Shown here one piece after another: positions 17,458 to 62,958 of a stretch of 64,000 bases of DNA. The notes beneath the pieces are model-generated. The model was not told the origin of the DNA. It did no database searches and saw nothing but the letters and a program-made list of their open reading frames with translations. This stretch comes from an uncultured Acidobacteriota bacterium (GTDB lineage: Bacteria > Acidobacteriota > Terriglobia > Terriglobales > Acidobacteriaceae), in assembly GCA_963742165.1 (NCBI GenBank), contig CAVUKX010000017.1, positions 110,698 through 174,697 of the forward strand, given 5' to 3'. The first letter of the stretch is position 1. The number at the start of each line of letters is the position of its first letter. Position numbers and translations under genes: made by a program.

Positions 17458-17469
17458 TTTGGCTCGGAG

Positions 17470-17844: not shown

Positions 17845-17891
17845 GAAATCCTTAGGAATGCAGAGTAAATACCAACCCCATGCAGCGGCGG

Positions 17892-20276: not shown

Positions 20277-20298
20277 GGAGCGGACGCTGGGCCACAAT

Positions 20299-20335
20299 CC
20301 CACATTCGCCAAAAGCAGGCGGATGTGGGCCACCC
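20299..20335. repeat. REP-like palindrome, family A
   Basis: CCCACATTCGCC-AAAAGCA-GGCGGATGTGGG followed by CCACCC; 11 of 12 stem pairs. Confidence 0.7.
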
Positions 20336-20430
20336 GCCTAAGACTCAAAGCGCAAAAGAAGGGACGAGGATGCACCTCGCCCCTGAACTGCGATCTTTCA
20401 CCGTTACAGCCACGCCTGGCAAAAAAAACT

Positions 20431-20790
20431 CTACGCCTTTACGCGATCGACTTCCTTGAGGCGGGCAGCCTTGCCACGCAGCGCGCGCAGGTAGTAGAGC
20501 TTGGCGCGGCGAACCTTGGCGGAGCGGACCACTTCCAGCTTGTCGATGATGCGGCTGCCCAGGGGGAAGATGCGCTCGACACCCTGGCCGAAGCTCATCT
20601 TGCGAACGGTGAAGCTGGGCTGCTGGCCGTTGGCCTTCTTGATGACGATGCCTTCGAAGATCTGGACGCGTTCCTTGTCGCCTTCCTTGATCTTGACGTG
20701 AACCTTGATGGTGTCGCCCACCGCGAAGCTCGGCAGGTCGGTGCGCTGCACTTTGGCAAGCATCCGGGTGATGATGGGAGATGACGACAT
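20431..20790 (-). CDS. rplS: 50S ribosomal protein L19
   Basis: Trimmed to ATG 20790: [52 protein letters not shown]...RRAKLYYLR. Confidence 0.9.
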
Positions 20791-47048: not shown

Positions 47049-47276
47049 TCGATGTTCCCCTCCTTGGCCCAACAACACATTCTGGTGCTCGATGCCTGCA
47101 TTGTCCAGCGCCATCGGCCGCAAAATGCGTGTCGGCAGAAAACAATGAGCGCTGTCCCTCGGGCGGAAACCTCCGTCCCGGTCCACGAAAACTACGTGGG
47201 CGATTGGTTATATCAGAAGCGGAGTGGCTAGACCAGTCCTGGGGAAGGAATTTACGTTTCGGCTTAATTACCCGGC

Positions 47277-48893
47277 TTACTTCTTGACCCGGCGCTGGTG
47301 GGTGGAGGGGATCTTCATGTCTTCGCGGTATTTTGCCACGGTGCGGCGCGTCACCTGGATGCCCTGGCCCTGCAGGATGCGGGTCAGCTGCTCATCGGTG
47401 AGCGGGCGGGCGGAATCCTCCTCCTCGATCAGCTTCTTGACCCGGCGCTTGAGGATCAGCAGAGAAGTTGCGCCGCCCTCCGGGCCATTGACGCTCTCGC
47501 TGAAGAAATAGCGCAGTTCGAAGACACCTTGCGGGGTGACCGCATATTTGCTGGCCACGGCGCGGCTCACCGTGGAAGGATGCACGCCGATCTCCTCGGC
47601 CACTTCCTTGATCATCATCGGCTTGAGGAAGTCGATGCCGAAATCGAGGAACTCGTGCTGGCGGCCGATGATGGCGTAGCAGGTCTTCAGAATCGTCTGC
47701 TTGCGCTGCTCGATGTTCTTGATGAGCTGCATGGCGCTCTTGTAGCGCTCCTTGACGTAGGTGCGCACGTCCTTCTCGTTGCCTTCGCGGCTCAGCATTT
47801 TTTTGTAGGCCGGGTTGAGGCGCAGCTGCGGCATGTCGTCGTCGTTCATCACCACCAGGTACTCGTCGCCCTGCTTGATGATGGCCACGTCGGGCTCGAT
47901 GAGGCGGGTTTCGCCGACGTTGTAGCGCAGGCCGGGCTTGGGGTCCAGGGTGCGGATGAGGGCCATGCAGCGCTCCAGCCGCTCCAAAGGCTTGCCCATG
48001 GCGCGGCCAATCTCGCGCATCTGCTTGTTCTGCAGCAGGTGGAGATGCTTGTCCACGATCACCGTGGCGTCAGCCAGCAGCTCCGGCATGTCAGGCTCGC
48101 CGCCGTGCTCGTCGTGGGCACGCACCAGGTCTTTGAGCTGGGCCAGGAGGCACTCGCGCAGATCGCGCGCTCCCACGCCCACCGGGTCCATCTGCCGCAC
48201 CACATCCAGCGCCTCGTGCAGCGCGTCGCGGCCAAAGAGCGCCTTGGAGGGCAGCTCCGGCTTGGGCACCAGCTTGGGACGCTCCAGCTCCGCGCCTTCC
48301 GCCGAGTCCACCTCCAGCACCGGTGCCGCGGCTGCTTCGTGCGCGGCCAGAAAACCTGCGCCCTGCTCCAGCAGTTCCTCGTCGCTGGAGAGCAGATACC
48401 CGTCATCGCCCAGATTGCCGATGATCAGCTCGGCCGCCGCCAGCACGTCGTCTTTGACGTGCATCGCGCCCAGCTGCCACATGAGGTGGTCGGTGAGGGT
48501 GGTGGGTTTGGAGAGGAAGTTTTCGAAGGAGGGCTTTTCGATCGACTCCAGCTCGCTGTTGCTGCGGTAGCCGGGGTCGAGGTAATCATTGAAAAAGGAG
48601 CCGAAATCGACCTCTTCGAAGGGATCGCGCTCCTCGGGAGTGGTCTTGGGCTCTTCTACCGTGGCGGCGCTGCTGTCGCGCTCGCGCTGCTCTTCCTGGG
48701 CCGCAATCTGGTCGATGCTCGGCACCGGATCCTCATACAAGTCCAGAACCGGATTTTCCACCATCTCTTCGGTGATCATGTCCTGCAGCTCAAGCTTGTT
48801 GAGCGCGAGCACACTGACCATCTGCACCAGTCCGGGAGTCAGGATCTGGCGTTGCGTAACCTTCAAATTCAGCTTTGTCGACAGTGATACCAT
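47277..48893 (-). CDS. rpoN: RNA polymerase sigma-54 factor
   Basis: N-terminal LKVTQRQILTPGLVQMVSVL, HTH ..IKEVAEEIGVHPSTVSRAV.., and RpoN box RRTVAKYRE. Confidence 0.95.
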   Translation of the reverse strand: MVSLSTKLNLKVTQRQILTPGLVQMVSVLALNKLELQDMITEEMVENPVLDLYEDPVPSIDQIAAQEEQRERDSSAATVEEPKTTPEERDPFEEVDFGSFFNDYLDPGYRSNSELESIEKPSFENFLSKPTTLTDHLMWQLGAMHVKDDVLAAAELIIGNLGDDGYLLSSDEELLEQGAGFLAAHEAAAAPVLEVDSAEGAELERPKLVPKPELPSKALFGRDALHEALDVVRQMDPVGVGARDLRECLLAQLKDLVRAHDEHGGEPDMPELLADATVIVDKHLHLLQNKQMREIGRAMGKPLERLERCMALIRTLDPKPGLRYNVGETRLIEPDVAIIKQGDEYLVVMNDDDMPQLRLNPAYKKMLSREGNEKDVRTYVKERYKSAMQLIKNIEQRKQTILKTCYAIIGRQHEFLDFGIDFLKPMMIKEVAEEIGVHPSTVSRAVASKYAVTPQGVFELRYFFSESVNGPEGGATSLLILKRRVKKLIEEEDSARPLTDEQLTRILQGQGIQVTRRTVAKYREDMKIPSTHQRRVKK

Positions 48894-49036
48894 GCACCAA
48901 CGGCGAAGGGGAAGTTTCCCAAGGCTGATTCTAAACCAGAAAGTTCAGTTGCATACGGAGTTCGGCAATCAAAATGCTACAAAAATAACTTAGGCCGGCG
49001 TGGGTAGCTGGTTCGCCACTCCCCGGAGCTCTGCCG

Positions 49037-49110
49037 TTATACCAGAGTAAAGCTCCCGCCAAGGTAGACGCGCTTCACTTCGGGGTCGTTGCCGGTTGCC
49101 CGGGGGTGGC
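49037..49110 (-). pseudogene. Orphan duplicate of the lptB 3' end (last ~18 codons plus stop)
   Basis: Minus strand reads ..[17 protein letters not shown], versus intact LptB ..[17 protein letters not shown] at 55735..55809. By hand alignment, 53 of 58 nt are identical before an indel. Confidence 0.8.
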
Positions 49111-49162
49111 TGAGTGATTCTGAGGCAACGATTCCGGTGAAATGCTGCGCCGGCGGCTCTGG

Positions 49163-49195
49163 TTCGGGCTAGTGAGCTGATTGGTGAATTGCGCC
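49163..49195. repeat. Island-specific repeat, GGGATAGTGAGCTA-core, type 1
   Basis: TTCGGGCTAGTGAGCTGATTGGTGAATTGCGCC, compared with TTCGGGATAGTGAGCTACTTGGCGATTTATCGCC at 49470. Confidence 0.6.
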
Positions 49196-49468
49196 AGCGG
49201 AGCTTTTTCGAGGAACACCCCCTCCCCCTATATTTCCCGGCAAAAATTTGAAAAAAAAGGAGTTAGGCGGCGAAAACGGGGCACAAAGGCGAAGAAAGCT
49301 TCCCTGATTTCAGGATAGCAAAAAGGGAGGGGCAAACCCTCAGTGGGAAGCGGATCTTTATGTAGCTTGGAGTCAGATGGTTGCGAGGAATTGCAAAGAA
49401 AAATCGCTTGACAGAGTTGTGCTACGAGGCCCAGTGCGTTCTGCATCGCAGGGAACCGCCCAGCTAAG

Positions 49469-49503
49469 CTTCGGGATAGTGAGCTACTTGGCGATTTATC
49501 GCC
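49469..49503. repeat. Island-specific repeat, type 1 (core plus GGCGAT-TT-ATCGCC hairpin)
   Basis: CTTCGGGATAGTGAGCTACTTGGCGATTTATCGCC. Overlaps the stop codon of the 49496..49822 gene. It is the inverted partner of 49883..49917. Confidence 0.8.
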
Positions 49504-49822
49504 CACTATTCATTGAGAGCTTAAAGGCAGCTACCTTGGCTGCCGTAAGTCTGAGGCCGCGGAGAACGCACCAAAAGCATACCGAATAGAGCAAAGCGGG
49601 AATCCATAGAACGATTGCATAGGTTATGACCTGATTTAGCATTCGGTTATGCAGTTCTGGGGCGTAATCCAACAACCAGGCCCAAGGCATTCCAAACAAA
49701 AAGGCGTAACCCGCGACGTGTTTACGGTGCAGGTGCAGACGGTCGGCGAGGTTCATTAGCACGGTTAGAACAGCCGCAACAGCAAAAGGTAATGTCAGTA
49801 ATATCCGCTTGCACCAAGTCAT
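49496..49822 (-). CDS. Small (108 aa) three-TM membrane protein, hypothetical
   Basis: Trimmed to ATG 49822: MTWCKRILLTLPFAVAAVLTVLMNL...YAFLFGMPWAWLL...VITYAIVLWIPALLYSVCFWCVL. AT-richer than the flanks by eye. Confidence 0.5.
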   Translation of the reverse strand: MTWCKRILLTLPFAVAAVLTVLMNLADRLHLHRKHVAGYAFLFGMPWAWLLDYAPELHNRMLNQVITYAIVLWIPALLYSVCFWCVLRGLRLTAAKVAAFKLSMNSGR

Positions 49823-49882
49823 AGTTGTCTGCACTTTACGCCAAATAGCGGCCAAGTTCCACGAATTGTTGGACGACAACAG

Positions 49883-49917
49883 GCCAAGTAACTCACTATC
49901 CCCGAAGCGGAACCGCG
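49883..49917. repeat. Island-specific repeat, type 2 (inverted core plus GCGGAACCGCG)
   Basis: GCCAAGTAACTCACTATCCCCGAAGCGGAACCGCG. Its reverse complement matches 49469..49492 at about 25 of 27 positions. Confidence 0.8.
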
Positions 49918-49944
49918 CGGGCCACGCCTTCCGCGACGGCGGGG

Positions 49945-49975
49945 GCATATTTGCCCTCTGTTGGCAAATGTGGGG
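49945..49975. repeat. REP-like palindrome, family A variant
   Basis: GCATATTTGCC-CTCTGTT-GGCAAATGTGGGG. Translates on the minus strand as PHICQQRANM. Confidence 0.6.
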
Positions 49976-50099
49976 ACGCAGGCCGCCTACGAAAGCCCCA
50001 GAGTTGGATGCGCCAACGCTGATTGGATAAGAACGAAGGCTTCGGCGGACCCGGTATTCTTTGGTTGAGGACCAAGAAGCTGGGTCAGGAGAAGCCTTC

Positions 50100-50990
50100 A
50101 TGCAGATTATAGGGTGTGATTTCCATCCCAGTTGGCAACAAGTAGCGGTTTTTGATCCCTCGACAGGTGAGATTGTGGAACTCAAGCTGGTCAACGGCAA
50201 CGGCGAGGCGGAGCGATTTTACCGTTCTCTGCCTCGGCCATCGCTGATTGGCTTGGAGAGTTGTGGCAACAGTCAGTGGTTTGTGGAGTTGTTGGAAAAG
50301 CTGGGGCACCTGGTGTGGATCGGCGATGCAGCGCAGATTCGGGCCAGTTATGTGCGCAAGCAGAAGACCGACAAGCGCGACGCGGCGCACATTCTGACGC
50401 TTCTGCGCGAGGGTCGGTTTCCTCGGTTGTGGGCTCCGGATGCGGCGGTGCGCGATCTGCGGCAGTTGTTGATTCACCGGCACAAGCTGGTGGAGATTCG
50501 GACGCGGGTGAAAAATGGTTTGCAGCATCTGGCGATGAATCGCGGCATGCAGAAGAAGGCCAGACTGTGGAGCGAGGCGGGTCAGATGGCGTTTGGCGCA
50601 CTTCCCTTGGAAGGTTGGGCGGCGTGCCGGAGAGAAGATCTGCAGCGGTTGCGGGCGATGCTCGATGTCCAGGTTGGCAAGCTCGACGAGGCTGCGGAAC
50701 GCGCCGCCTATCACGACGAGCAGGCGCGACTGCTGATGACGCAACCAGGGGTGGGTCCGATCACCTCGTTGGCCTTTGTGCTGACCATTGGCGAGGTTGC
50801 GCGGTTCAAGCGCGGCAAGCAGGTGGCCAGCTATCTGGGACTGATTCCGCGCGAACACAGTTCGGGCGGCAAACAGCGGCTCGGCGCGATCAGCAAGCAG
50901 GGCAACGGGTTTGCGCGCATGTTGCTGGTGGAAGCGGCGCAGACAGCGTGCCGGTTGGACGAGGGATTTCGCAAGCAGTATCAGCACCGC
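50100..50990 (+). mobile_element. IS110-family DEDD recombinase/transposase gene, 3'-truncated
   Basis: MQIIGCDFH.., IGLESCGNS, KTDKRDAAHIL (DEDD-type N-domain). QPGVGPITSLAFV..IGEVARF.., YLGLIPREHSSGGK (Ser motif). Family similarity stops at ..FRKQYQHR (50990), and the ORF then reads antisense through the next gene. Confidence 0.8.
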
Positions 50991-51014
50991 TGGGCTGAGC
51001 ATGTACAGGATGGC

Positions 51015-51704
51015 TCAAGCTCTCGGAAGGGCCAAAATCTTGTATGTACTCAAGACAAGCAGGACGAACGAGACCACCACGACTGCGACCCGCGGCCCCA
51101 AAGCCTCGAAACGTTGGCTCAGCGCAGTCAGGAGCAGAACGGTAGCCAACAGGACCGTGATTCTCACGTAGTCGTCGCCGGTCTCCCGCGTGCTTACGCC
51201 CTTCTGGAACTGGCTTTTGGACTCCGCTGCGAGTGCCGCAGACTGTTGGCTGTTTGCGTTTGCGTACTCCGCCATGAAATCGGGGCCGGGAGGAGCATTG
51301 AGATTGTGAATGGGGTCGAGTTTCATCCAGGCGGCGAACGCAGTGGCATATTCGGGCCGGAATCGGTGCTGGTAGAATGCGGCCAACTTGTCTCTGCCGG
51401 CCAGCGTTGCGGAAACCCAGGCATTGAAGGTCGTGATGTCGTAAAGGCGATCATGGCCCGCCAGCGTCGCCTTCTCCTGCGACGCCACCATGGTGATGGA
51501 CGCAAGGTTGTAGTGCTCGGCCGAAAGGGCGTCCCAGCGCGCCGCCTGGTAGCCGCTCCACGCGGTAGCGATCGCGACAACCGCGAGCACAACAGCCTCT
51601 GCGATCTCAACCCATTTCACCCGGCGGTCGGTTGGTGATGAATGATGCTCGCCCTGCTCGTGAATCTTGTGAGCAAACTCAACGTTCGACGTTGCCTCTG
51701 GCAT
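51015..51704 (-). CDS. DUF4337-like membrane protein
   Basis: N-terminal His-rich HKIHEQGEHHSSP, TM segment WVEIAEAVVLAVVAIATAWSGYQAARW, long helical region, C-terminal TM pair. Family call is from memory. Confidence 0.5.
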   Translation of the reverse strand: MPEATSNVEFAHKIHEQGEHHSSPTDRRVKWVEIAEAVVLAVVAIATAWSGYQAARWDALSAEHYNLASITMVASQEKATLAGHDRLYDITTFNAWVSATLAGRDKLAAFYQHRFRPEYATAFAAWMKLDPIHNLNAPPGPDFMAEYANANSQQSAALAAESKSQFQKGVSTRETGDDYVRITVLLATVLLLTALSQRFEALGPRVAVVVVSFVLLVLSTYKILALPRA

Positions 51705-52168
51705 CCGTATGCCTCCCGCGGCGAATCGGAAGTTGGGAGCTCCGGTCCGGAATGCCGCTCAGTCTCCTACAATAGGCGACTTTTCCGCGCCGCTTATTCC
51801 GTTTCGGCTCGAACCATCCAGTTGGAGCGGCGCTTGCTTGTTCAGCCGCTCCTGGCTCTTCTGGCTTTTCCCGATAAGCCATGCCTCGCTACTTGATCTT
51901 CGTGCGTGTGTCGGTGTGGCGCACGATATTGAATTCCATGCGAAATGCTACGAAGTATGCATTTAGGAGGCAACTGTCAAAGCTGACAGCCTTAGATTGC
52001 ACTCCTTCGATTACCCGCCCTCGGCGAGATGCTTGCCTGCGGCCTGTATATTTTGACACTGTCCAGCCCCGAAGCGGACGGCGCAGGAAACGTGCTCTGA
52101 AAACCTGCATCTAAGTAATCAGTTCAACCGAGCTGTTAACTGAAAGTTTTGCAAAATGGAGAAACCAC

Positions 52169-53932
52169 ATGTCTTTGGGTCGATTCCTTCGATTTGTACT
52201 CCCGTTGGCGGTCGCACTCTGCGTACCGTCGTTTTTGTTAGCCCAGACTGATTCTGTTCCCAAGGTACAGATTTTCGGCGGCTATTCGTGGTATCACCCT
52301 GGCGGCTCCGTCTCGACTACGGACGTTACCACTGCCGATATCTCGCGTGTCGCGGCCGTCCCGGCAGTGTCGAGTTCCGATCCGAGCATACCGGATTTCA
52401 ACGCAGGCTGGGGGGCGCAGGTCACCTACAACTTCAACAATTGGTTGGGAGCGACCGTGGACGGCAGCGGCCACTACAACCATGGCAGCATTTACACGGC
52501 TGCGGGCGGACCGAAGTTCACCTATCGCAGGGGGCACTTTGCGCCCTTCGGCGAGGTACTAGCCGGTGTCGCGTTTATTGGGCCGAATTCAGCTCCCAGC
52601 ACCAACGAATTTGCGTTCCTGGCCGGCGGCGGACTCGATTACCAGGTGACTCGGCACTTCTCGATTCGGCCCGTGCAGGCGGACTACGTCCTGACGCAAT
52701 ATAACGAGTTTTCTGCTCCAGGCGTTCGGAACTACCTAAGTGGAGTTCGTCTGCAGGCGGGCCTGGTACTCAACTTCGGATATCCGAAGGTAGTTGAGGT
52801 AGGCGCGAACTGCACCGCGGTGCCATCGGCGGTGGACGCCGGCGGGCCGGTCACGATCACCTTGACGCCGTCGGGCTTTTCGCCCAAGCGCACTCTGAGC
52901 TACTCCTATTCCAGCACCGGCGGCAAGATCTCCGGAAACACGATTGACACCACGGGCCTGAACGCGGGCACCTATACGGTGAGCGCCAAGGTTGCGGACA
53001 GCGGCAGTGGCAAGAATCAGCGGACCGCAGGTTGCCAGGTGAGCTTCATGGTGAACCCGATGAATCCGCCGACTCTGTCCGTTTCAGCGAGCCCGAGTTC
53101 GGTGGACGCGGGCCAAAGCTCGACAATTACGGCCAGCGGCAGCAGCCCGGATAACCGTCCGCTCAGCTACAGCTGCACATCGACTGCCGGAAATTTGAGC
53201 GGAGCCGGCACGCACTACACCCTGGACACCACCGGCGTTCAGCCGGCAAGCAGCATTACCGTAAATTGCACGGTGACCGACGACCGCAGCCTGACCGCAG
53301 CGGCGAGCGCCGGGGTGACGATCAACGCTGCTGCAGCAGTGGTTGCACCACCTCCCCCGCCGCAGACCGAAATCGAGGAATACCTGAAGATTCGGAGTAT
53401 CTACTTTGCGACAGACAAGCCTTCGGTCAAGAAGCCCGACGGCGGCCTGATGCCTAGCCAGGAAGCTACTCTCGCCAAACTCGCAAGCAGTTTCAAGACG
53501 TATCTCCAAAGCAAGCCGGATGCCACCCTGACCTTGGAAGGCCATGCCGACCAGCGTGGTTCCGTGGCATACAATCAGGCACTGTCCGAGCGGCGTGTTG
53601 AAAGCACCAAGCACCTGCTGGTTGAGCAGGGCGTTCCGGAAGCCAGCATCCAGACCAAGGCGTACGGTAAGCAACATAACCTCACCGAAGCCGAAGTTAA
53701 AAATGCGGTGGAACAGAACCCCGAGGTGAGCGCTGAAGACAGGGCGAAATTGCTGAAGAAGATCAAAGTAATCCAATGGGCAAGCAACCGCCGCGTGGAC
53801 GTTACTCTGAACATCCCTGGCAAGAGCCCTCAGGAGTCAGTCCAGACGTACCCCTTTAACGCTGAGGATTCCATGGTTCTGCTGTCGCCAGCTCCTCCGT
53901 CGAAAAAGGCAGCAGCCACGAAAAAGAAATAG
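52169..53932 (+). CDS. Three-module outer-membrane protein: N-terminal beta-barrel, two Ig-like repeats, C-terminal OmpA domain
   Basis: Signal peptide. Barrel-like strands (KVQIFGGYSWYHP...GVRLQAGLVLNF). Two repeats (CTAVPSAVDAGGPVTITLTPSG.. / VSASPSSVDAGQSSTITASGS..). OmpA domain (IYFATDKP...LEGHADQRGSVAYNQALSERR..NRRVDV). Confidence 0.8.
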   Translation: MSLGRFLRFVLPLAVALCVPSFLLAQTDSVPKVQIFGGYSWYHPGGSVSTTDVTTADISRVAAVPAVSSSDPSIPDFNAGWGAQVTYNFNNWLGATVDGSGHYNHGSIYTAAGGPKFTYRRGHFAPFGEVLAGVAFIGPNSAPSTNEFAFLAGGGLDYQVTRHFSIRPVQADYVLTQYNEFSAPGVRNYLSGVRLQAGLVLNFGYPKVVEVGANCTAVPSAVDAGGPVTITLTPSGFSPKRTLSYSYSSTGGKISGNTIDTTGLNAGTYTVSAKVADSGSGKNQRTAGCQVSFMVNPMNPPTLSVSASPSSVDAGQSSTITASGSSPDNRPLSYSCTSTAGNLSGAGTHYTLDTTGVQPASSITVNCTVTDDRSLTAAASAGVTINAAAAVVAPPPPPQTEIEEYLKIRSIYFATDKPSVKKPDGGLMPSQEATLAKLASSFKTYLQSKPDATLTLEGHADQRGSVAYNQALSERRVESTKHLLVEQGVPEASIQTKAYGKQHNLTEAEVKNAVEQNPEVSAEDRAKLLKKIKVIQWASNRRVDVTLNIPGKSPQESVQTYPFNAEDSMVLLSPAPPSKKAAATKKK

Positions 53933-53953
53933 CTGAGCTGCTGTTTTCAAGGA

Positions 53954-53985
53954 GTGGCCCGTCGCTTCGCGGCGGGCCACTTTTT
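53954..53985 (+). terminator. Rho-independent terminator
   Basis: GTGGCCCGTCGC-TTCG-CGGCGGGCCAC followed by TTTTT, 22 nt after the stop codon. Confidence 0.8.
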
Positions 53986-54348
53986 GCGTATGGAGAGTGG
54001 CGCCGGCTCAAGATGTAGTGGCTACTTCTCGCCACGTAGCTTCAAATCGGGGATGTTTCGGAGCGGCCGCCTAGCCAGAAACACTATTCTTTCCATTGTC
54101 ACTTTTTGCCAGTTCTCACGGACGGGGCACTACGATTCGGCTACTTTTCCGAATGTGACCAGTTGGGTTGGTCGGTCGGCTGGAAACACAGCCGAGTTCG
54201 TTCCTCGCAGGATCCCTCGACACTCCGCGATGCGTTCGCAAAGAAGCGTTACGGTTGGCGCCGATTATGGGCGAGTTACAGGGCATACGGAAATTGTCGA
54301 CAGTAGGATAGTTGTCGATAACAGGGCTTTTAGCTCAGTATCCCGCAG

Positions 54349-54385
54349 CTCTGGATAGTGCGTTACATGGCGATTTATCGCCATG
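54349..54385. repeat. Island-specific repeat, type 1
   Basis: CTCTGGATAGTGCGTTACATGGCGATTTATCGCCATG, including the 9-bp-arm palindrome CATGGCGAT-TT-ATCGCCATG. A degenerate inverted core (TAGCTCAGTATCCC) lies just upstream at 54331..54344. Confidence 0.75.
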
Positions 54386-54569
54386 TATTTTCACATCTGG
54401 GTTATTTCCGAGTGGCCGACAAACCTGGAATCATGGCGTGGCGCGCGACATAATCCTGCACGCCAATGTCAGAAGTTAGATTCACCAGTGCCCAGATGTA
54501 TTCCAGCACCTTAGAGAAAATGCGAGATCAGGCCGGAGGGCCTCCTGCATAGCAGAGGGCCGACCATTA

Positions 54570-54953
54570 TCAGTTGCAGCCTGAATTGTACTTCCCCTTC
54601 GCGCAGGTAGTGCCCTTGGGGCCTGTCGCCACACCCTTGCCATTCTTGGTCTTGGCTTCGCTACCACCGGTGGTGTGAGTCGTCTTTACCCCGTTCTCAT
54701 TCGTCTGCGAAACAGCACCTCTGCCTGTGTTTGGGTTGTATTTCGCTTCGCCGCCGGTGTTGGTCTGAACCGTCTTTACCCCGTACTCATTTGTTTGGGA
54801 GACAGCAGCTTTGCCCGTGTTTGGGTTGTATGCGGCGCCACTCTGACCATTGTTGCAAATGGTCTCACCACGCAGGTTTTTGTAGCAATCGTCCGCATAC
54901 AGGGCCGAAGCGAACAACATGCATGCCATCATCGATAAAACTTTGATTTTCAT
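54570..54953 (-). CDS. Small secreted protein with an internal tandem repeat and terminal Cys pairs
   Basis: Signal peptide MKIKVLSMMACMLFASALYA. Repeat YNPNTG(K/R)(A/G)AVSQTNE(Y/N)GVKT..T(N/T)GG(E/S)EAK occurs twice. Cys at DDCYKNLRGETIC and TTCAKGKYNSGCN. Confidence 0.6.
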   Translation of the reverse strand: MKIKVLSMMACMLFASALYADDCYKNLRGETICNNGQSGAAYNPNTGKAAVSQTNEYGVKTVQTNTGGEAKYNPNTGRGAVSQTNENGVKTTHTTGGSEAKTKNGKGVATGPKGTTCAKGKYNSGCN

Positions 54954-55058
54954 TTTTCCTGCCTATTCTGTGTTCGCCATTATTCTCCGCTCTTTTCAGT
55001 TCAGGTGCGCTACTCCGGTACTTTGTCGATCTAATCCCAATGGGACACTTCGGAACCA

Positions 55059-55364
55059 TTAATGGATCATCCCGCATACGATCATTTTGTCGACGACTTG
55101 GTCGGCGGCAATGCTAACGAATTCGTGGCGCATTTCCGTATCGGTGCGCAGCAGTTCCAAGAGTTTCTGCTCTGCCGGTAACATGGGCATGTTCGTGTGC
55201 TGGGCTTGTTGCTGCCTCAACTGCTCGCAACTGGACGTCTGGTAATGCTGGGCCACCTTGGTGGCCACAGCATCCAGCATCGGGTGCTGGCCCTGCTGTG
55301 CAGCGGCGACAGTGACGTAGAGCAGCGCGAGCGCCGCTGCTACCAGATACGAATGCTTCTTCAT
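55059..55364 (-). CDS. Small secreted hypothetical protein
   Basis: Signal peptide MKKHSYLVAALALLYVTVAAAQQ, helical Gln-rich body, 101 aa. Confidence 0.5.
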   Translation of the reverse strand: MKKHSYLVAAALALLYVTVAAAQQGQHPMLDAVATKVAQHYQTSSCEQLRQQQAQHTNMPMLPAEQKLLELLRTDTEMRHEFVSIAADQVVDKMIVCGMIH

Positions 55365-55645
55365 GTTCTTCTCCCTTTCTCGTGTTCGAGATGTATAACC
55401 GTCCCATTCAAGGCTCAGAATGAGGAGGTGTTTGCATTACCGGTATCCGCGAACGATAGTCCTCAGGGTTCCAAGCATCGTGTCGTACCGGTAACTGCCA
55501 AAATTGGCAAATCCGGCGTGGAGTATGGTGGCATAGTGTTTCGGCCGCAACTGTCTAAACTGACAGGCTATCCAACGAACGACTCTCTCACTCCTGGATT
55601 GGGTCCGCTTGCCACCGGTTGTCCCCGGCTAATGGGCAATCTAAA

Positions 55646-55666
55646 AGCTATCCCAAAGGGATAGCT
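55646..55666 (-). terminator. Candidate terminator downstream of lptB
   Basis: Perfect 9-bp stem AGCTATCCC / GGGATAGCT with a 3-nt loop. On the minus strand it is followed by TTTAG. Lies about 70 nt after the lptB stop. Confidence 0.4.
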
Positions 55667-55672
55667 GGAAGT

Positions 55673-55711
55673 AACAGGGCAAGGCACTCACGATCCCAAG
55701 GCGGAACCGCG
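55673..55711. repeat. Island-specific repeat, type 2
   Basis: AACAGGGCAAGGCACTCACGATCCCAAGGCGGAACCGCG. Collinear with 49878..49917 (CAGGCCAAGTAACTCACTATCCCCGAAGCGGAACCGCG). Confidence 0.7.
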
Positions 55712-55734
55712 TGCAGTGTGCCTTCGTAGCGCGG

Positions 55735-56463
55735 TTATACCAGCGTAAAGCTCTCGCCCAGGTAAACGCGCTTGACTTCGGGGTCGTTGCCGAGTTGCTC
55801 GGGCGTGCCGGTGCGGAAGATGCGGCCTTCGTTGATGATGTAGGCGCGGTCCACCACCGAGAGCGTTTCGCGGACGTTGTGGTCGGTGATGAGGACTCCG
55901 ATGCCGCTGTCCTTGAGGGCGAAGATGATCTTCTGCAGGTCGAGCACGGCGATGGGATCGATGCCGCTGAACGGCTCGTCAAGCAGAATGAAGCTGGGAC
56001 TGATGCAGAGGGCGCGGGCGATTTCCACCCGGCGGCGTTCGCCTCCGCTGAGCGCATAGCCCTTGTTCTTGCGGATGTGGGCCAGGCCAAGCTGGTCGAG
56101 CAGGGCTTCCATCTTGGTGCGGCGCTCCTCCCAGTTGGAGCTTTGCGTCTCCAGCACGGCCAGGATGTTCTCCTCCACGCTGAGCTTGCGGAAGACCGAG
56201 GCCTCCTGGGGAAGGTAGCTGATGCCATGCTGCCGGGCGCGCAGATACATGGGAACGTCGGTGATCTCGGTGTTGCCGATCATGACGCGTCCGCTGTCGG
56301 GCGGGATAAGCCCGACGATCATGTAGAAGCTGGTGGTCTTGCCCGCGCCATTCGGCCCCAGCAGCCCCACCACCTCGCCCTGGTGCACCGTGAGCGAGAC
56401 TCCGTTGACCACGCGGCGGCCGCGATACGATTTGGCGAGCTCTTCAGTGGATAGCGTCTGCAT
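55735..56463 (-). CDS. lptB: LPS export ABC transporter ATP-binding protein
   Basis: [82 protein letters not shown]. Confidence 0.9.
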
Positions 56464-58769
56464 TAGCGGGAAACGTGGGTGTGAGTGACGGACCGGGTGG
56501 AGTCACTGCCCTCGACGACCACCCTATCATCGTGGTTGTAGAAGGTCAACGAATCGCCCCGGACGGTGCCGTTGACCGGGTCGCTCAGCACGGGCGAGCC
56601 TCCGGTCATCACATAGGTTCCGGTGGAGGCCTGGTAGACCAGTTTTTCGCCTTCGGCGCGGCGCCCCTGCTGCTGCACCAGCACGTGGGTGATGGCAATG
56701 ATGTGATCCAGCTGGCTGGGGCCGGCCGTGCCCGGTTTGGCGCCGGCCGGACTCAGGAAGACATCCGCCTTCGCCGCCGTCATCACGCCGTCTTCGCTTT
56801 TGGCCGTCACTCCGCCCGAGTAGTGGGCCTGGCGGTCGTTGTCGGAGTAGTTCAGCTTGGGCGCCGTAACCAGCATGGTGGAGGACTTGCCTTTGGCGTC
56901 CACCTGGGCAAACCAGCTGCTCACCGGATGCTTCGGGTCTCCCGTGGCCACGAGGGTGCGCGTCTTCTGTTCGAAATCGATCGCCGGCGCCTCCACGATG
57001 TTGGAACCCTGCCAGAGGCGCGCGTTCCCGGTGTAGTGCGCCAGCCCCGACGCTTGCGCGGCATTCATCGCCTTGGCGGTGACGTGCACGGGATCGGAGT
57101 TGGCCAGCAGCGCTCCGTTGGGCTGGACCGTCAGTTCGCTGTAGGTGCTCTTGACGTTGCCGGTGGCAAACATCTCGCCGCTGGTTTTTCCGCTTTCGCC
57201 GCGCAGCAGACGAATGTTGTCGGCCACCACGGTGGTGCCGCCATCGACCACGCGCGGGTCGCCCACCAGGGTCATCGAGTCATCCAGAGGCGTATAGGTG
57301 GCGCGCGCCGCCCAGGCGCGCCTGCCGCCCGGCTCGTCCTTGGAACTCTGCGCCTCCTTGTAGCGGAAATCGCCCTCCTGCACGGCGCGCGTGATCTCGC
57401 CCGCTGGGCTGAAGTCGGCGACCAGCGTCTCGCTGGTGCTCACCTTGTCGGGCTCGCCCGGAGCGCGGCGGGTGACCTGGACTGCGCCACGGCCATGCAC
57501 GGTTTGCAGCCGGTTCTGCTCGCCAAAGTCGGCGGTGAAGTGCTGGGCGTCAATGACGGAGTCACCCGGCTGCTTGGGGTCGGCCGAGCGGGTGATCAAC
57601 TCGCCCGGTCCGCCAGTCTCCGCCGAGGACAACTGCTGCTGCTCGTTCATGGCAAACGTCATTGCGTCGGAGGTCATCGTCATCGCCTGGGGATTTTTGC
57701 TGCCGGGGCGCGGGGCCTGCCGCAGAACCGTCCCCTGGCTGGCGTAGATGGTCTGCAGGCGCGCTTGCGCGTCGCCGTGCGCCTTGGGCTTTGCGCCCTC
57801 GGCCACAAACTGCATCCGCATCTCGCCCGAGTGTCCCGACGCCAGCTGCCTGGCCGACTCGAAGTCCACTCCTCCGGTGAACAGCGCCGACTCGATCAGG
57901 TTTTGAGCGCCGAGCGTCAGTTCGCCCTTGGGGGCGCGCAACTGCATTCCCGCGGCATCGCTCAGGCGGACGTTGCCCGTGGCGTTCACCCGTTGCACGG
58001 AATTGTCCGGGGCCAGATGCACGACGGCGTCGTCGGCCAGCATGGTGCGGCTCTGGGTGGTCATCTGCACGCCCTGCATGGTCACCAGTCGCGGCTCTTT
58101 GGTGATGGTGCCGGAGTGGGCCAGAATGTGGGTCGACTGCTTGCCTTCGGTCTTGATATCGACCGCCGCGTGCAGGGTGAGCTGGTTGTTCTTGGAGTCG
58201 TAGGTCGCCCCGTGCGCCGTCCCAGCCGCCTGCGACAGCTGGAAATCCACCTGGCCATCGCTCTCGGCCACGCCGGTCTTCTGGTTGAAGGTCATCCCCA
58301 CGGCCGCCAGATGGATGGGATTTTTCGCCGCCGACGACGGCGTCCCGGCTTTATCTCCCCCGGCTTTGTCGCCTGTGTCTCCCTGCAAATCGATATGAAC
58401 CAGGCCCTTGGAAACCACCTCTCCGGCCTGCTGGTCATAGTCAAAATCGTCGCCGGAGATCTGGTCGAAGCGGTCGGATTGCTTGCCGTACACAATGATG
58501 TTCACATTGTGCAGTGTGGCGTGGCCGCCCTGCTTGAACTGCGTTGCCTTGGAGGCATGGATGGTGAAGAGCGTGCGGCCGCCCTCGCTCTTCGACATGG
58601 TGAAGCCTTCGCTGGTCTGCTGAATGTCGATGCCGACCTTGCCCGGAAGGTCCCTCAGAGCGCGGCGCAGTTCCATCCGCGCCCGCATGTAGAAGCCGCC
58701 CACCACGGCCACGGCGGCCAGCGCCAGCACGGCAAACCAGATTCGCAGACGAGGGATGGAAAGAGGCAT
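56463..58769 (-). CDS. Giant LptC/LptA-like protein: N-terminal membrane anchor plus several OstA-type beta-jellyroll repeats
   Basis: Trimmed to ATG 58769. Anchor [19 protein letters not shown]. Recurrent LptA-like strands ([82 protein letters not shown]). The stop overlaps the lptB start (TAATG). Confidence 0.65.
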
Positions 58770-58905
58770 TACCCACTCAGTGTACCCGAGCCACCCGGCC
58801 CCCGCACCAATTCGCAATTACGAATTCAGCTGCGCCCTGCCGTGTGCTCTAAAGGCAATTTGCAATCTGGCGTACTGACGGGGAATTCTAGCCTTGTCCG
58901 CTGAA

Positions 58906-59694
58906 TCACTCCGCATTTTCGGCCTGCTCCTTCTCGAAGAGCGAAGGAGTTTCCCGGAACAGCTCATCCAAAAAACTGTCCCGGTCGTTGACGAAGCGCC
59001 GGACAATCTGCATCGACGCCGTCTCTTCATATTGAACGTCACAGAGCCGCTCTCCGTCGAAGGAAACAATTTGCGCCTCCGGATAGCCCAATAGAACCGG
59101 AGAGTGGCTGGAGATGATGAACTGTGCGTCCTTGTACTTCCGCAGCACATCGTGAATCAGTATTAGGAAGGACAACTGGCGTTGCGGCGAGAGTGCGGCC
59201 TCGGGTTCATCCAAGAGGAATAGGCCATTGCGCCGGAACCTTAAATCCAGCAGCGTCAGGAACGCCTCGCCATGAGAACGGATATGGAGACTACGCCCTC
59301 CGTAGGAGGCACTGATGGGCGGTGCAAAGGACGGCTCCTTGTCGAGGTCGTCCATGTGGGAGACCGTGTTGAAAAAGCTTTCGGCTCTCAGAAAGAATCC
59401 CGCCCCAGTTCGTTTGTCGAACGACAACCGCAGCGCCTGAACCAGCGGGTCAATAGAGTGATTGCTCTCGGTGCAGTCATTGGAGAAATTGCGGTTGCCG
59501 CCTTCACGCCCGAATCCATAGTGGGCAGCGATTGCCTCCAACAAGGTCGATTTGCCAGTGCCGTTCTCTCCCGCGAAGAAACAAACCCGCGACCCCAGCG
59601 TCAGCCGTTCGAGGTTACGGATTGTCGGAACGGAGAACGGATAGCTTTCCCAGTCCTGCACCCGGTCGCGCAATAACGTAATCGTCTTAAGCAT
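58906..59694 (-). CDS. Stand-alone ABC/SMC-type AAA ATPase (AAA_21-like)
   Basis: Trimmed to ATG 59694. FFAGENGTGKSTLLEAIA (Walker A), LFLLDEPEAALSPQRQ (Walker B), ISSHSPVLL. Begins 4 nt after the recJ stop. Confidence 0.7.
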   Translation of the reverse strand: MLKTITLLRDRVQDWESYPFSVPTIRNLERLTLGSRVCFFAGENGTGKSTLLEAIAAHYGFGREGGNRNFSNDCTESNHSIDPLVQALRLSFDKRTGAGFFLRAESFFNTVSHMDDLDKEPSFAPPISASYGGRSLHIRSHGEAFLTLLDLRFRRNGLFLLDEPEAALSPQRQLSFLILIHDVLRKYKDAQFIISSHSPVLLGYPEAQIVSFDGERLCDVQYEETASMQIVRRFVNDRDSFLDELFRETPSLFEKEQAENAE

Positions 59695-59698
59695 GGCA

Positions 59699-61555
59699 TC
59701 ATTCCCCCGCCTTTGCCGCCGACGCTGGCTTGTCCGATACCGCCCCCCTGTAATCGGAAAGCACCAGCTGCAATCCGCCGCCAAAGTCCTTATGTGTGTT
59801 CTGCTCGATCCGGAAGAGCACGTCCAGCGCCGTCCCACCTTCCAGTGGTTCGGCCTCCAGACGGTGCGCCATCCGCCAGCCAAGTGCGTCCAGCCCACGG
59901 GCCATGGCTCCAGCTCCCCCGCTCGCATACCGCCGCAACTTCAGTTTCAGATGCTTCTCGCGCATCACCTTGGGCTCACCCATCAGGGTCGCTCCGCGGG
60001 CCAGAAACACCGGCTCCGGATTGCCCATGCCGAAGGGCTGCAGGCTGCGCAACTGCTCCCAGAGGCGCGGGGTGATCTCGTCCATCGCCAGTTCGGCGTC
60101 ATACTCCAGAACCGGCTGCATTGGCTCCCCAGCCAGCTTGCCACGGGCATAGTCGTTGATGCGCTGCCGCAGCTCGCCTACATGCTGGACGCGCATGGCA
60201 AAGCCCACGGCGTGGGCGTGTCCGCCGAAGCGCAGAAATAGCTCCGGCGCAGACTCCAGCGCATCCAGCAGATGGAAGCCGGGAATCGAGCGGCCCGAGC
60301 CGTGCGCCTCTTCGCCGTCGAGGGCAATCACCACCGCGGGACGGCCAAAGCGCTCCACCACGCGCGAGGCGCAGATGCCGATCACGCCGCGGTGCCATCC
60401 CTCACCTTCCACCACCAGGCAGTGCGCCGCGCGCAGCTCCGCAGACTCCTCGACCTGGCGCAGCACGGCCTCCGAGATGCGCTGCTCCTCCTGCTGACGG
60501 GCCAGGTTGAGCTGGTTCAGCCGGGCGGCCAGCTCCTGCGCCCGCACTCCGTCCTTTACCGTGAACAGCTCCACCACATCTTTGGCCACGTCCATGCGGC
60601 CGGCGGCGTTGATGCGGGGCGCAATGCGAAAGGCGACCTCGGTGGCACTGGGTGCGCGCCGCGGCTGCAGGGCCGAGCCCAGCTCGCAAACTTCCAGCAA
60701 CGCTTCCAGGCCGGGATTCACCACCCGGCTCAGCCCTTGCAAGCCCAGCGCCACCATGGCGCGGTTCTCGCCCAGCAGCGGCACCGAGTCGGCGATGGTC
60801 GCAATGGCCACGATCTTCAAGAACGAAGGAACCAGACGCGCCCGTCCGGCACGCTCCAGCAGCGCCTGCGCCAGCTTAAAGGCCACGCCCGCGCCACAGA
60901 GAAATTTGCAGGGATATCCGCAACCGGGCTGGTTTGGATTGAGCACGGCCAGGGCGCGCGGAACGGCTCCGCTCTGCTCCGCGTTACCGGCAACAAGATG
61001 GTGGTCGGTGACGATCAGGTCCACGCCCGAGCGCTCGGCGGTTTCGGCGGCGGCAAAGGCGCGGATGCCGGTGTCCACGCTGATGATGAGCGTGATGCCG
61101 TTGGCGGCGGCGCGCTCGATCACCTCGTCGCGCATGCCATAGCCTTCCAGCAGGCGGTGCGGCACGTGGAAGTCGCAGCGCCCGCCGAGCAGTTCGATCA
61201 CCGTCTTGAGAATCACCGTGGCCATGGTGCCATCTACGTCGTAGTCGCCGTAGATGAGGATCGCCTCGCGTTGCGCGATGGCGCGCTCCAGCCGTTCCAC
61301 GGCCGGACGCATGCCGAGCATTTCCATGGGGGAGTGCAGTTGATCGAGCGAGGGATGAAGAAAACGGTGGGCGTCTTCCACGGAAGCGATGCCGCGCGCC
61401 ACCAGCAATGCGGCCACAATCTCCGGCAGGTCTAGGGCCGCCGCCAGTTGCTGCCTTAGCTGTGTTTGAGACTGTGTTGGACCCAAGCGGGCCGGGCTTA
61501 CCCGATCCTGTGCCAGCGAATCGCCGCCCGTGGCCGTGCGCAGCCGCCAGCGCAC
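59699..61555 (-). CDS. recJ: Single-stranded-DNA-specific exonuclease RecJ
   Basis: GTG start. ILIYGDYDVDGTMATVIL, ISVDTGI, LIVTDHH, GGHAHAVGF (DHH/DHHA1 motifs). Confidence 0.9.
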   Translation of the reverse strand: MRWRLRTATGGDSLAQDRVSPARLGPTQSQTQLRQQLAAALDLPEIVAALLVARGIASVEDAHRFLHPSLDQLHSPMEMLGMRPAVERLERAIAQREAILIYGDYDVDGTMATVILKTVIELLGGRCDFHVPHRLLEGYGMRDEVIERAAANGITLIISVDTGIRAFAAAETAERSGVDLIVTDHHLVAGNAEQSGAVPRALAVLNPNQPGCGYPCKFLCGAGVAFKLAQALLERAGRARLVPSFLKIVAIATIADSVPLLGENRAMVALGLQGLSRVVNPGLEALLEVCELGSALQPRRAPSATEVAFRIAPRINAAGRMDVAKDVVELFTVKDGVRAQELAARLNQLNLARQQEEQRISEAVLRQVEESAELRAAHCLVVEGEGWHRGVIGICASRVVERFGRPAVVIALDGEEAHGSGRSIPGFHLLDALESAPELFLRFGGHAHAVGFAMRVQHVGELRQRINDYARGKLAGEPMQPVLEYDAELAMDEITPRLWEQLRSLQPFGMGNPEPVFLARGATLMGEPKVMREKHLKLKLRRYASGGAGAMARGLDALGWRMAHRLEAEPLEGGTALDVLFRIEQNTHKDFGGGLQLVLSDYRGAVSDKPASAAKAGE

Positions 61556-62270: not shown

Positions 62271-62786
62271 ATGAGAAAACAAGCGGGCTTCTCGATCCTT
62301 GAACTGCTCATCGTGGTGGGCATCATCATCATTGTTGCCGCCATCGCCATCCCCAACCTTCTCAGGGCGCGGGTGGCCGCCAACGAAGCCTCGGCCGTGG
62401 GTTCGCTGCGCGCCATCGACTCCGCCCAGATCGGTTATTTGCAGGTGTATCCGGACTTGGGCACCTATGCCTGCCAGTTGAGCTACCTGGGACCTCCGCT
62501 CGCCGGCGGTCCGGTGAACTCGACCGCCGCGGATCTGATCGACATGCAGCTGGCCAGCGGAATCAAGAGCGGATACAGCTTCTATATGAGCTGCATCCCT
62601 TCGTCCGTCACGGGCAGCACCAGCTACCAGATCCAGGCCGCGCCGGTGGGAGCCAGCATCACCGGCTCCTCCTGCGGCACCAACTATGGCCGATGCTTCT
62701 TCACCGATTCCAACGGCGGCGTCTATCAGCTGAACGGCCCGGGCAGCAGCAACGGCACCGCCTTCAGCCTTTCCCCGATCGGGTAG
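62271..62786 (+). CDS. Type IV pilin / type II pseudopilin-like protein (prepilin N-terminal methylation motif)
   Basis: Trimmed to ATG 62271 (AGGAG upstream): MRKQAGFSILELLIVVGIIIIVAAIAIPNLL, i.e. G|FS(I/L)xE plus a hydrophobic helix. Confidence 0.8.
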   Translation: MRKQAGFSILELLIVVGIIIIVAAIAIPNLLRARVAANEASAVGSLRAIDSAQIGYLQVYPDLGTYACQLSYLGPPLAGGPVNSTAADLIDMQLASGIKSGYSFYMSCIPSSVTGSTSYQIQAAPVGASITGSSCGTNYGRCFFTDSNGGVYQLNGPGSSNGTAFSLSPIG

Positions 62787-62958
62787 AAGATCGCAGGGTG
62801 GCCCGTTCAACCCTCTTTTGGTTGAGCGGGGTAGTTGATTCTGCCCGTCCTCTTTTCCGTCGGCCCGCTATGCCGATTCGGCGGATGACACCCCTTCGCC
62901 GCTCTGTGTTAAAATTGAGTGTTCCCAACGCTCGATCTCACACACCTATATCTATCGT

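Follow-up and report, generated by a model that had tools for sequence, protein, structure and literature searches.

A relic genomic islet with a second lptB 3' end separates lptB from rpoN in an uncultured acidobacterium

Introduction

Genomic islands and prophages that use tyrosine integrases are found at the 3' ends of tRNA and tmRNA genes and of protein-coding genes. They are characterized by imperfect direct repeats of the gene end, an intact target gene, an empty site in relatives, and a deviant composition. All four features are shared by the locus described here, an islet between lptB and rpoN in a stretch of DNA of 64,000 nucleotides from an uncultured acidobacterium (the window). It differs from these islands in that integrase and excisionase are missing, an attP or circular form is not known, lptB serves as a site in no other genome, the cargo is a patchwork of chromosomal type, and the repeat is a long one of about 76 nt with only 85-90% identity. 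SCCmec, which is inserted by serine recombinases at the 3' end of rlmH (orfX), likewise occupies the extreme 3' end of a preserved housekeeping gene, and decayed remnants of its family without recombinase genes are well known, a further likeness to the lptB islet. In contrast, the SCC repeats have a length of about 15-18 bp, the family is defined by ccr genes, of which the lptB islet has no equivalent, and SCCmec belongs to another phylum.

In homology-facilitated illegitimate recombination and in Campbell-type integration by RecA, a short patch of homology anchors foreign DNA, and after a single crossover with a circle the insert is flanked on either side by a copy of the patch. Here the difference is that the lptB repeat has kept just 16-18 nt of perfect identity, which is below the usual need of RecA, and that the source of a circle with an lptB end is unexplained. 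Lastly, the IS110/IS1111 families are represented in the islet by a dead copy and, in a second assembly, by a frameshifted copy within a REP-like palindrome, which is the kind of site that the family typically targets. However, these copies are later passengers and not the vehicle, and the copy in the window has lost its right end together with the end of its gene. The genes lptB and rpoN are normally adjacent, and in Gram-negative genomes their junction is usually taken to be fixed. No paper that reports lptB as an integration site was found in the literature.

Results

Layout of the locus and the empty site in relatives

The lptB gene (55735..56463, minus strand) is intact and encodes a protein of 242 aa with the Pfam domains ABC_tran and BCA_ABC_TP_C. 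It has 97% amino acid identity to its counterpart in L001, a Terriglobales MAG that is the closest public genome (about 89% DNA identity). The sigma-54 gene rpoN (47277..48893, minus strand, 538 aa) was verified by the Pfam families Sigma54_AID, Sigma54_CBD and Sigma54_DBD, and the neighbourhood also holds hpf and an LptC/LptA fusion (Pfam) as well as rapZ (homology to relatives). The Pfam results upheld the gene calls of the first-pass annotation, which had seen lptB and rpoN split by an insert; they are 6.8 kb apart. The inserted islet itself comprises 6.6 kb (49108..55730), as delimited by alignment, G+C content and its presence in the independent assembly L089 and in the sequencing runs X1-X7, and it is missing in L001 and in 80 relatives.

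The site in L001 is clean and empty, and lptB and rpoN are adjacent in 77 of the 78 assessable relatives, with spacers of 19-364 nt. This adjacency holds across relatives that span 81-97% LptB identity, and thus the proposed insertion into a conserved junction was confirmed. A second lptB end was found in none of the 80 relatives, i.e., none keeps both ends without the insert. It almost certainly was the lineage of the window in which the insertion occurred.

The islet has a G+C content of 56.7%, compared with 62.8 ± 0.8% elsewhere in the window (177 other segments of 6.6 kb, minimum 0.609), and is thus a 7-sd outlier. The GC3 values are 0.53-0.74 for the islet genes and 0.79-0.86 for the flanking core genes. 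The computed profiles therefore bear out the earlier impression by eye that the intervening DNA is AT-richer, and the islet DNA is compositionally foreign.

The duplicated 3' end of lptB

A repeat search revealed a core of 62 nt (49033-49094 versus 55731-55792) that is 90% identical in the same orientation, and by chance about 4e-18 matches of this kind would be expected in a region of 8 kb. When compared with the empty site, the full repeat proved to have about 76 nt, corresponding to L001 10658-10733. The left copy (55731..55806, minus strand) is continuous with lptB and consists of the last 72 nt of its coding sequence with the stop codon, plus 4 nt; on this side the window aligns from 59917..55731 with L001 6551..10733. 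The orphan copy (49033..49107, minus strand, 56/62 identity to the left copy) runs on into the native spacer and rpoN, and on this side the window aligns from 49107..47181 with L001 10658..12587. The duplicated 76 nt are the exact overlap of both flanks aligned to L001. An orphan lptB end about 143 nt upstream of rpoN had been noted in the first-pass annotation, and the distance from the orphan stop codon to the rpoN ATG is indeed exactly 143 nt, with identical spacing in L001.

The identity between the two copies is uneven. It is about 70% over the first 21-27 nt, rising to about 90% over the other 58 nt (Fisher p = 0.015-0.07), and the longest perfect block of 16-18 nt, GCAACGACCCCGAAGT, is located where low identity changes to high. 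The first-pass annotation had counted 53 matches in 58 nt and four of five differences at third codon positions, which is correct for the window, and had concluded that each copy had evolved as a coding sequence. This argument is weak, because over the full length of the in-frame repeat five synonymous stand against five non-synonymous codons, which is not significantly different from neutral decay (p ~0.15). The 1-nt indel that had also been described is present in the window, but it is specific to that assembly, as the orphan is one base longer in L089, X1, X2 and X6.

The two copies are mutual closest relatives, with five differences between them versus eight between the orphan and L001. 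At every discriminating site the intact copy equals L001, and it is the orphan that deviates. The differences are nearly all specific to the orphan, and three of them hit residues that are invariant in the 79 relatives compared; the changes at conserved positions include Glu to Gly twice, Leu to Pro, and Gly to Cys. The divergence of the orphan is about 0.15 per site, and the per-lineage dS since the split from L001 is about 0.13-0.17. With the differences polarized by L001 and the synonymous compared with the non-synonymous changes, either copy may be the native one, and the replacement 3' end that the first-pass annotation had ascribed to the element is thus no more than a possibility. A donor lineage with an orphan-like lptB end was found neither among the 79 relatives nor by an exact scan of metagenome contigs.

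Contents of the islet

The islet is a mosaic of ordinary Terriglobales envelope genes, and its separate modules resemble loci in other members of the order that are unrelated to each other, with identities of 86-98%. On the rpoN side, a segment (49473..49902) is bounded by the inverted arms 49473-49505 and 49870-49902, which were found by the repeat search and are unique in the window. It varies between strains (see below) and contains a small-membrane ORF of 116 aa (49496-49846, minus strand). The next module is a dead IS110-family copy (50022..50989, plus strand) that consists of the left end and 297 codons. It matches the Pfam families DEDD_Tnp_IS110 (PF01548) and Transposase_20 (PF02371) and, with 200 bits, positions 1-320 of 343 of the NCBIfam profile transpos_IS110 (NF033542). 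The copy is 87% identical to L001 2141-3112, and the homology ends at about codon 297 of 346 (of 359 if the listed ORF is counted from its upstream TTG). The earlier call of a truncated recombinase was thus correct: about 49 C-terminal codons and the right end are gone, and the copy is therefore not full-length and unable to move. An intact continuation was present only in other contigs from the same soils.

A homologue search revealed that the adjacent gene (51015..51704, minus strand) encodes a conserved membrane protein of 229 aa. It has 3307 homologues, mostly of exactly 229 aa, from soil and peat metagenomes and Terriglobales MAGs. The label DUF4337-like, which it had received in the first-pass annotation, is not supported, as no Pfam or NCBIfam family was matched even at E<=10. 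It is followed by a segment of 316 nt (51726..52041) that strain comparison showed to be present in the window and L089 and missing in L082, L083 and X7. A further gene (52169..53932, plus strand) encodes an outer-membrane protein of 587 aa with a barrel, PKD-like repeats and an OmpA C-terminal domain (Pfam; its homologues carry OMP_b-brl). This gene is recombinant: positions 52863-54014 are 98% identical to L081, and the 5' part is unrelated at the DNA level. Two ORFs for small secreted proteins lie closest to lptB, one of 127 aa (54570..54953, minus strand) with an internal repeat of 2 x 90 nt, and one of 101 aa (55059..55364, minus strand). The latter is part of a module (55061-55509) that shares 86% identity with L086-L088, in which it occurs in another context.

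Credible Rfam matches were absent in the regions 46-58 kb and 49.0-49.5 kb, and sigma-54 promoters were not enriched within the islet. In five runs a motif of 37 nt at 49218-49254 is a branch point, and its RNA fold z-score is -0.04. An exact metagenome scan with this motif was empty, and the ORF of 47 aa that follows it had 0 matches in 1.84 billion proteins; the motif was treated as non-coding repeat sequence.

Variation of the islet between strains

The same islet is present in L089, an independent assembly of the same species with the same layout as the window, and in contigs of six soil and peat runs, five of which were confirmed to be short-read. The orphan junction is crossed by a contig of X1 (48155-49210, 0 mismatches, 1 gap) and the lptB junction by a contig of X4 (55546-55812, 0 mismatches). 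Because L089 and the contigs of independent runs carry it, the islet is not an assembly artefact. A contig with an empty site was also seen in X4; it vanished when at least 97% likeness was demanded and thus belongs to another species.

The structure of the islet varies between strains. In L082, L083 and X7 the IS110 copy is replaced by 16 nt. In place of the inner part of the variable segment, L089 has 2.66 kb of replacement sequence and L082 has different DNA. The second, frameshifted IS110 copy, which is located inside the REP-like palindrome, is present in L089.

Search for a vehicle

Pfam and NCBIfam scans of the window and of the longer L089 island, including island and intergenic ORFs, detected no tyrosine or serine integrase, excisionase or remnant, in agreement with the first-pass annotation, in which no integrase had been seen. 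The only recombinase genes of the islet, in the window and in L089, are IS110-family DEDD transposases. Among ten intergenic ORFs no integrase remnant was found by Pfam, and the sole match was HTH_21 at chance level (E = 0.034).

An element that uses the lptB end as its site was found neither in the 80 relatives nor in viral contigs or the phage and plasmid collections. Also, lptB adjoined no provirus and was not part of attP sites in viral contigs, and the search for islet DNA in plasmids and phages yielded nothing relevant. For a circular or attP form, no joint reads were obtained at a likeness of at least 97%, and exact scans of metagenome contigs were empty. Two IS copies that bracket the cargo, as in a composite transposon, are absent: there is a single internal IS fragment, and the ends of the islet are without IS sequence. 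Nor is there a short target-site duplication of 2-14 bp, the duplicated stretch being about 76 nt long.

Discussion

Possible routes of entry

The islet is a fairly ordinary relic genomic islet that is now immobile. The proposal of an integrative element at the lptB 3' end stands in part: the gene-end repeats, the empty site and the deviant composition speak for it, but no integrase, attP or circle was found, nor a second genome that uses the site. Entry by a circle and a single crossover (Campbell-type) is favoured and is given an even chance. A circular molecule with a segment like the lptB 3' end would have recombined once with the chromosomal lptB end, through either a site-specific integrase, lost in the meantime, or host homologous recombination. 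Thereby lptB would have stayed whole, and a duplicate of its last ~75 nt would have been moved beyond the insert, attached to the native spacer and rpoN. The repeat spans the last codons, the stop codon and 4 nt and thus has the classical attL/attR shape at a gene 3' end, and its uneven identity with a perfect block at the transition is expected from a crossover within imperfect attP/attB homology. Against this route, the cargo appears to be unlike that of a mobile element, with homologues scattered over Terriglobales chromosomes, and the orphan-specific differences are explained equally well by in-place decay of a simple duplication. In addition, the searches described above yielded no integrase, circle or attP, no empty site within the species and no second genome with this site in use. 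Such a decay is central to a possible, if rather unlikely, explanation, in which linear foreign DNA was joined at a staggered break, by template switching or by end joining past the lptB stop codon, about 76 nt were copied, and the downstream copy decayed. The copies are mutually nearest, with the orphan in the derived state at almost all differing sites; the 5:5 ratio of synonymous to non-synonymous changes fits neutral decay (p = 0.15), the lack of a recombinase matches a process that needs none, and the orphan divergence of ~0.15 fits within the per-lineage dS of ~0.13-0.17. However, 76 nt far exceed any known footprint of transposition or end joining, uniform decay does not predict divergence that is uneven along the repeat, and the insertion would have to be almost as old as the split from L001.

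It is quite improbable that the lptB 3' extremity is the attachment site of an undescribed class of acidobacterial cargo elements without tyrosine or serine integrase, which would be mobilized in trans or through an RNA-guided recombinase of the IS110 type and for which the graded lptB-like arm would be attP. Very improbable is also that one of the IS110 copies, the dead copy of the window or the second copy of L089, encoded an RNA-guided recombinase that brought the segment as cargo. The islet has no other recombinase genes, and IS110 elements move via circular intermediates, but their insertion produces no long duplication and Rfam shows no structure like a bridge RNA. Moreover, the dead copy is missing in the variant of L082, L083 and X7 and hence arrived after the islet modules had been assembled, and the L089 copy resides in a palindrome that has different inserts in different strains. 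Recombination between the direct repeats would excise the islet precisely and leave a clean junction as in L001, so that the islet could be ancestral and have been lost by deletion in L001 and the other relatives. This is extremely improbable, as the adjacency in 77 of 78 relatives would require many repeated losses, the composition is that of a 7-sd outlier and the closest relatives of the modules are at other loci. The probability is negligible that the arrangement is an assembly artefact or that the orphan is a conserved regulatory leader of rpoN. Judged from the sample names of related records, the window probably comes from a metagenome assembled from long reads, and it contains at least one indel not shared by other strains, but both junctions are present in error-free contigs of independent runs and in a second assembly. 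The leader reading, the alternative named in the first-pass annotation, is excluded, as lptB-end sequence occurs in the rpoN leader of no relative.

History and meaning of the islet

The foreign DNA entered at the extreme end of lptB after the split from L001 and before the sampled strains of the species diverged. Strain comparison shows that, later, an IS110 element was inserted and then half deleted, the REP-like palindrome took up different inserts in different strains, and the 3' two-thirds of the OmpA-type gene were exchanged with a homologue at a different locus. The present state is an immobile cargo of the OmpA/PKD outer-membrane protein, the conserved membrane protein of 229 aa and three small proteins of secreted or membrane type. 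The islet reveals no new mechanism. It is a documented example of the flexible building and rebuilding of an islet in an uncultured soil bacterium, for which an empty site, three variants among strains and dated IS events are available, and can be used as a strain marker. It also shows that the lptB-rpoN junction can be split without harm in Terriglobales.

Transcription of rpoN

The first-pass annotation had regarded rpoN as cut off from lptB transcription. In favour of this, a terminator-like hairpin with a 9-bp stem followed by TTTAG, recognized by a consensus match only, lies inside the islet (55646..55666, minus strand), 70 nt past the lptB stop codon. On the other side, the rpoN leader of about 100 nt is intact. 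Thus rpoN may be isolated from lptB transcription, which is probably of little consequence. Metatranscriptomes contained diverged relatives only; one RNA contig joined the lptB end to the spacer in a relative with an empty site, which is too weak for a conclusion on co-transcription. The split junction together with the conserved leader implies that rpoN has its own promoter in Terriglobales, and, judged from the sequence comparison, it is probably transcribed from this leader. The native spacer (48894..49036, minus strand) has 143 nt, as in L001, and the leader, its distal ~100 nt, is conserved in 12 of the 14 aligned relatives, while L012 and L013 share the proximal part only.

The lptB-rpoN Junction Is Split by an Islet

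Genes of the conserved core were assigned with Pfam, apart from rapZ, which was called by homology to relatives. On the minus strand, the gene for a 784-aa LptC/LptA fusion protein (56463-58817) and lptB (55735-56463) are separated by 6.8 kb of other DNA from rpoN (47277-48893), which is followed by hpf and rapZ. A repeat search revealed a direct repeat of 62 nt with 90% identity, for which the chance expectation is about 4e-18 in 8 kb. One member (55731-55792) is the end of lptB including the stop codon, and the other (49033-49094) is coding-like and terminates 143 nt ahead of the rpoN start. The insert between the lptB ends (49108-55730, the islet) has a G+C content of 56.7%, compared with a mean of 62.8% (sd 0.8, minimum 60.9) in 177 other windows of 6.6 kb. 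The GC3 values are 0.53-0.74 in islet genes versus 0.79-0.86 in the flanking core genes, and one third of the islet is non-coding. The second copy (49033-49107) is referred to as the orphan. Thus, the first-pass annotation, with a displaced lptB end upstream of rpoN and AT-richer DNA between the copies, was accurate.

The same order, lptB, islet, orphan and rpoN, with both copies of the lptB end, was found in L089, an independent assembly of the same species that is 98-99% identical to the window. In addition, contigs from six public soil or peat runs (Logan assemblies) covered the islet at about 99-100%. The orphan junction was crossed by a contig of run X1 (48155-49210) and the lptB junction by a contig of run X4 (55546-55812), both without a mismatch. 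The islet is therefore genuine and occurs in more than one strain. The 1-nt indel that had been noted in the orphan is present in the window, but L089 and runs X1, X2 and X6 have one extra base at 49091/92, and thus the indel is a peculiarity or an error of the window's assembly. With this extra base, the frame opened by a GTG at 49218 runs on through the orphan codons to the stop, resulting in a chimeric ORF of 60 codons (49037-49218, minus strand). It is probably not a gene, because the Shine-Dalgarno spacing is poor and homologues are absent. In five soil or peat runs, contigs branch at a 37-nt motif (49218-49254, minus strand TTTTCAAATTTTTGCCGGGAAATATAGGGGGAGGGGG), which is thus found in several genomic settings; neither a protein nor an Rfam or fold signal was detected for it.

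Comparison with Related Genomes

A scan for LptB with one genome per species yielded 80 Terriglobales loci with 10-kb flanks. The closest relative was L001, a metagenome-assembled genome (97% LptB amino acid identity, about 89% DNA identity), which is colinear with the window across 25 kb with two exceptions, the islet and an IS110 element in L001. In the alignment, window 59917..55731 corresponds to L001 6551..10733 and window 49107..47181 to L001 10658..12587. L001 lacks window positions 49108-55730, and its positions 10658-10733 (76 nt) are exactly the part that is doubled in the window. An empty site, which the first-pass annotation had suggested to look for, is therefore present in L001, and lptB is also close to rpoN in 77 of the 78 assessable loci (spacer 19-364 nt, median 116). 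In two other species the junction was disrupted, by an IS5-like insertion in the spacer of L004 (10730-11731) and by a rearrangement in L070, whose junction is followed by over 10 kb of unrelated genes, an ISXO2-like transposase among them (10730-20726). Insertions are tolerated in the first approximately 40 nt past lptB.

Two observations had been named that would speak against an insertion, namely relatives with both lptB ends but no insert, and an orphan belonging to a conserved rpoN leader. None of the 80 Terriglobales loci had its lptB end in duplicate. The distal approximately 100 nt of the spacer are conserved in 12 of 14 aligned relatives and are intact downstream of the orphan, which itself lies outside this leader. 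Therefore, lptB and rpoN were ancestrally close together, and the islet was inserted between them. The DNA was inserted in the lineage of this species, and the insertion duplicated the lptB end. A same-species empty site was not seen; the sole empty-site contig (run X4) was lost at a likeness of at least 97%.

The fusion protein upstream of lptB has an N-terminal LptC domain and a C-terminal LptA/LptD_N domain. The fusion was kept in all relatives retaining that flank, so that the bridge protein of Terriglobales seems to be an extended fusion of LptC and LptA.

The Islet Is a Decayed Mosaic

The islet encodes a 116-aa membrane ORF within a variable segment, a dead IS110 copy, a 229-aa membrane protein, a 587-aa outer-membrane protein with a barrel, PKD-like repeats and an OmpA domain, and two small secreted proteins of 101 and 127 aa. 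The 229-aa protein has no Pfam or NCBIfam model, and its family is very large (3307 matches, mostly exactly 229 aa). The 3' two-thirds of the OmpA gene (52863-54014) are 98% identical to a homologue in the unrelated neighbourhood of L081 (10680-11831), while the barrel part has no match there at the DNA level. This pattern indicates recent domain-level recombination. In several runs, read depth over 52863-54014 was raised two- to threefold. Segments 52042-53645, 50990-51725 and 49867-50021 matched L082 and L083 at 94-98%; in these contigs 16 nt replace the IS110 fragment, and a 316-nt segment is absent. The 101-aa gene and its upstream region are 86% identical to L086-L088, and homologues of this gene occupy four or more distinct housekeeping contexts. 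The 127-aa protein has two tandem 90-nt repeats with 80% identity (54652-54831). A 31-nt dyad (CAACTGTCnAAnCTGACAG) occurs twice, at 51962-51992 and 55539-55569, about 180 nt ahead of the OmpA-type gene and the 101-aa gene, respectively, and is a possible common operator.

A REP-like palindrome with the sequence CTTCGGGATAGTGAG[C/T]TACTTGGC.. is split into two inverted arms, 49473-49505 and 49870-49902. The segment between them is strain-specific: the window has a 365-nt insert carrying the small-membrane ORF, L089 (14773-17430) has 2.66 kb that include another IS110-family gene with a frameshift, and L082 (2511-3306) has a different sequence again. An unsplit copy at 54350-54389 adjoins a 70-nt indel polymorphism. 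The islet IS110 copy lacks the last approximately 49 codons and the right end. It belongs to the same family as the L001 element (87% identity), and thus the lineage has, or once had, this IS in an active form. The L001 element is complete (1997-3601) versus only about 120 nt at window 62781-62903; its transposase has 346 aa counted from the ATG, and 359 aa if the upstream TTG of the listed ORF is taken as the start. Taken together, this is a decayed, mosaic genomic islet of a known kind, which was later reshaped by IS insertion, deletion and recombination.

The Two lptB Ends and the Route of Entry

The in-frame L089 form of the orphan was used for the comparison with the intact copy (55731-55806). 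The last 25 codons contain five synonymous and five non-synonymous codon differences, and one more difference lies 2 nt past the stop. The non-synonymous changes of the orphan strike residues that are invariant in 79 relatives, e.g., Glu to Gly. The intact copy agrees with L001, and the orphan differs, at every discriminating site but one; at this threonine codon, close to the repeat's 5' edge, the orphan shares ACC with L001 whereas the intact copy has ACG. Nevertheless, the orphan is nearer to the intact copy (5/58 differences) than to L001 (8/58) or any other relative. Across the whole repeat the excess of synonymous changes did not reach significance (p = 0.15); in the 58-nt subset of the first-pass annotation it was marginal (p = 0.045). 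Identity varied along the repeat, from about 70% over the first 21-27 nt to about 90% over the other 58 nt (Fisher p = 0.015-0.07), and the longest perfect block (16-18 nt) sits at the transition.

The proposal that an integrative element entered the 3' end of lptB is reasonable, and the insertion is secure, but this reading is unproven and fails on the integrase: as had been stated before, no tyrosine or serine integrase was found, nor an excisionase or remnants, in the window and L089. We give even chances to a circular molecule with an lptB-like end, which would have recombined once with the chromosomal lptB end using a lost integrase or host recombination. This route is favoured by a repeat spanning the gene end and stop, by the graded homology with a perfect block at the transition, and by the preservation of lptB. 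The main rival, which we regard as rather unlikely, is that linear DNA was joined into the site, that a long piece of native sequence was duplicated in the process, and that the orphan then decayed. Nearly all changes are indeed orphan-specific and a recombinase is absent, but the length of the duplication would be unprecedented and the divergence is uneven along the repeat. Given a dS of 0.27-0.35 between the window and L001, the approximately 15% divergence of the orphan could have built up in place, which requires an insertion nearly as old as the L001 split. Cargo transfer driven by IS110 is highly improbable; the IS110 copy is absent from the peat islet variant, and it thus arrived after the islet modules were assembled. 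Slightly less probable still is an ancestral islet that was repeatedly lost from the tight junction of the relatives, and an assembly artefact or a conserved leader is refuted by L089 and the independent contigs and by the absence of a second lptB end from the relatives.

Consequences for rpoN

A terminator-like hairpin, a consensus match only, lies inside the islet 70 nt past the lptB stop. The conserved rpoN leader is untouched, and the islet and the IS of L004 are both upstream of it, which points to a separate promoter for rpoN there. Metatranscriptome contigs were derived only from diverged relatives. The leader contains TAGCATTTTGATTGCC (48964-48979, minus strand), which most relatives preserve in front of rpoN and which resembles a sigma-54 -24/-12 box with AG instead of GG. 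It could be a candidate site of rpoN autoregulation.
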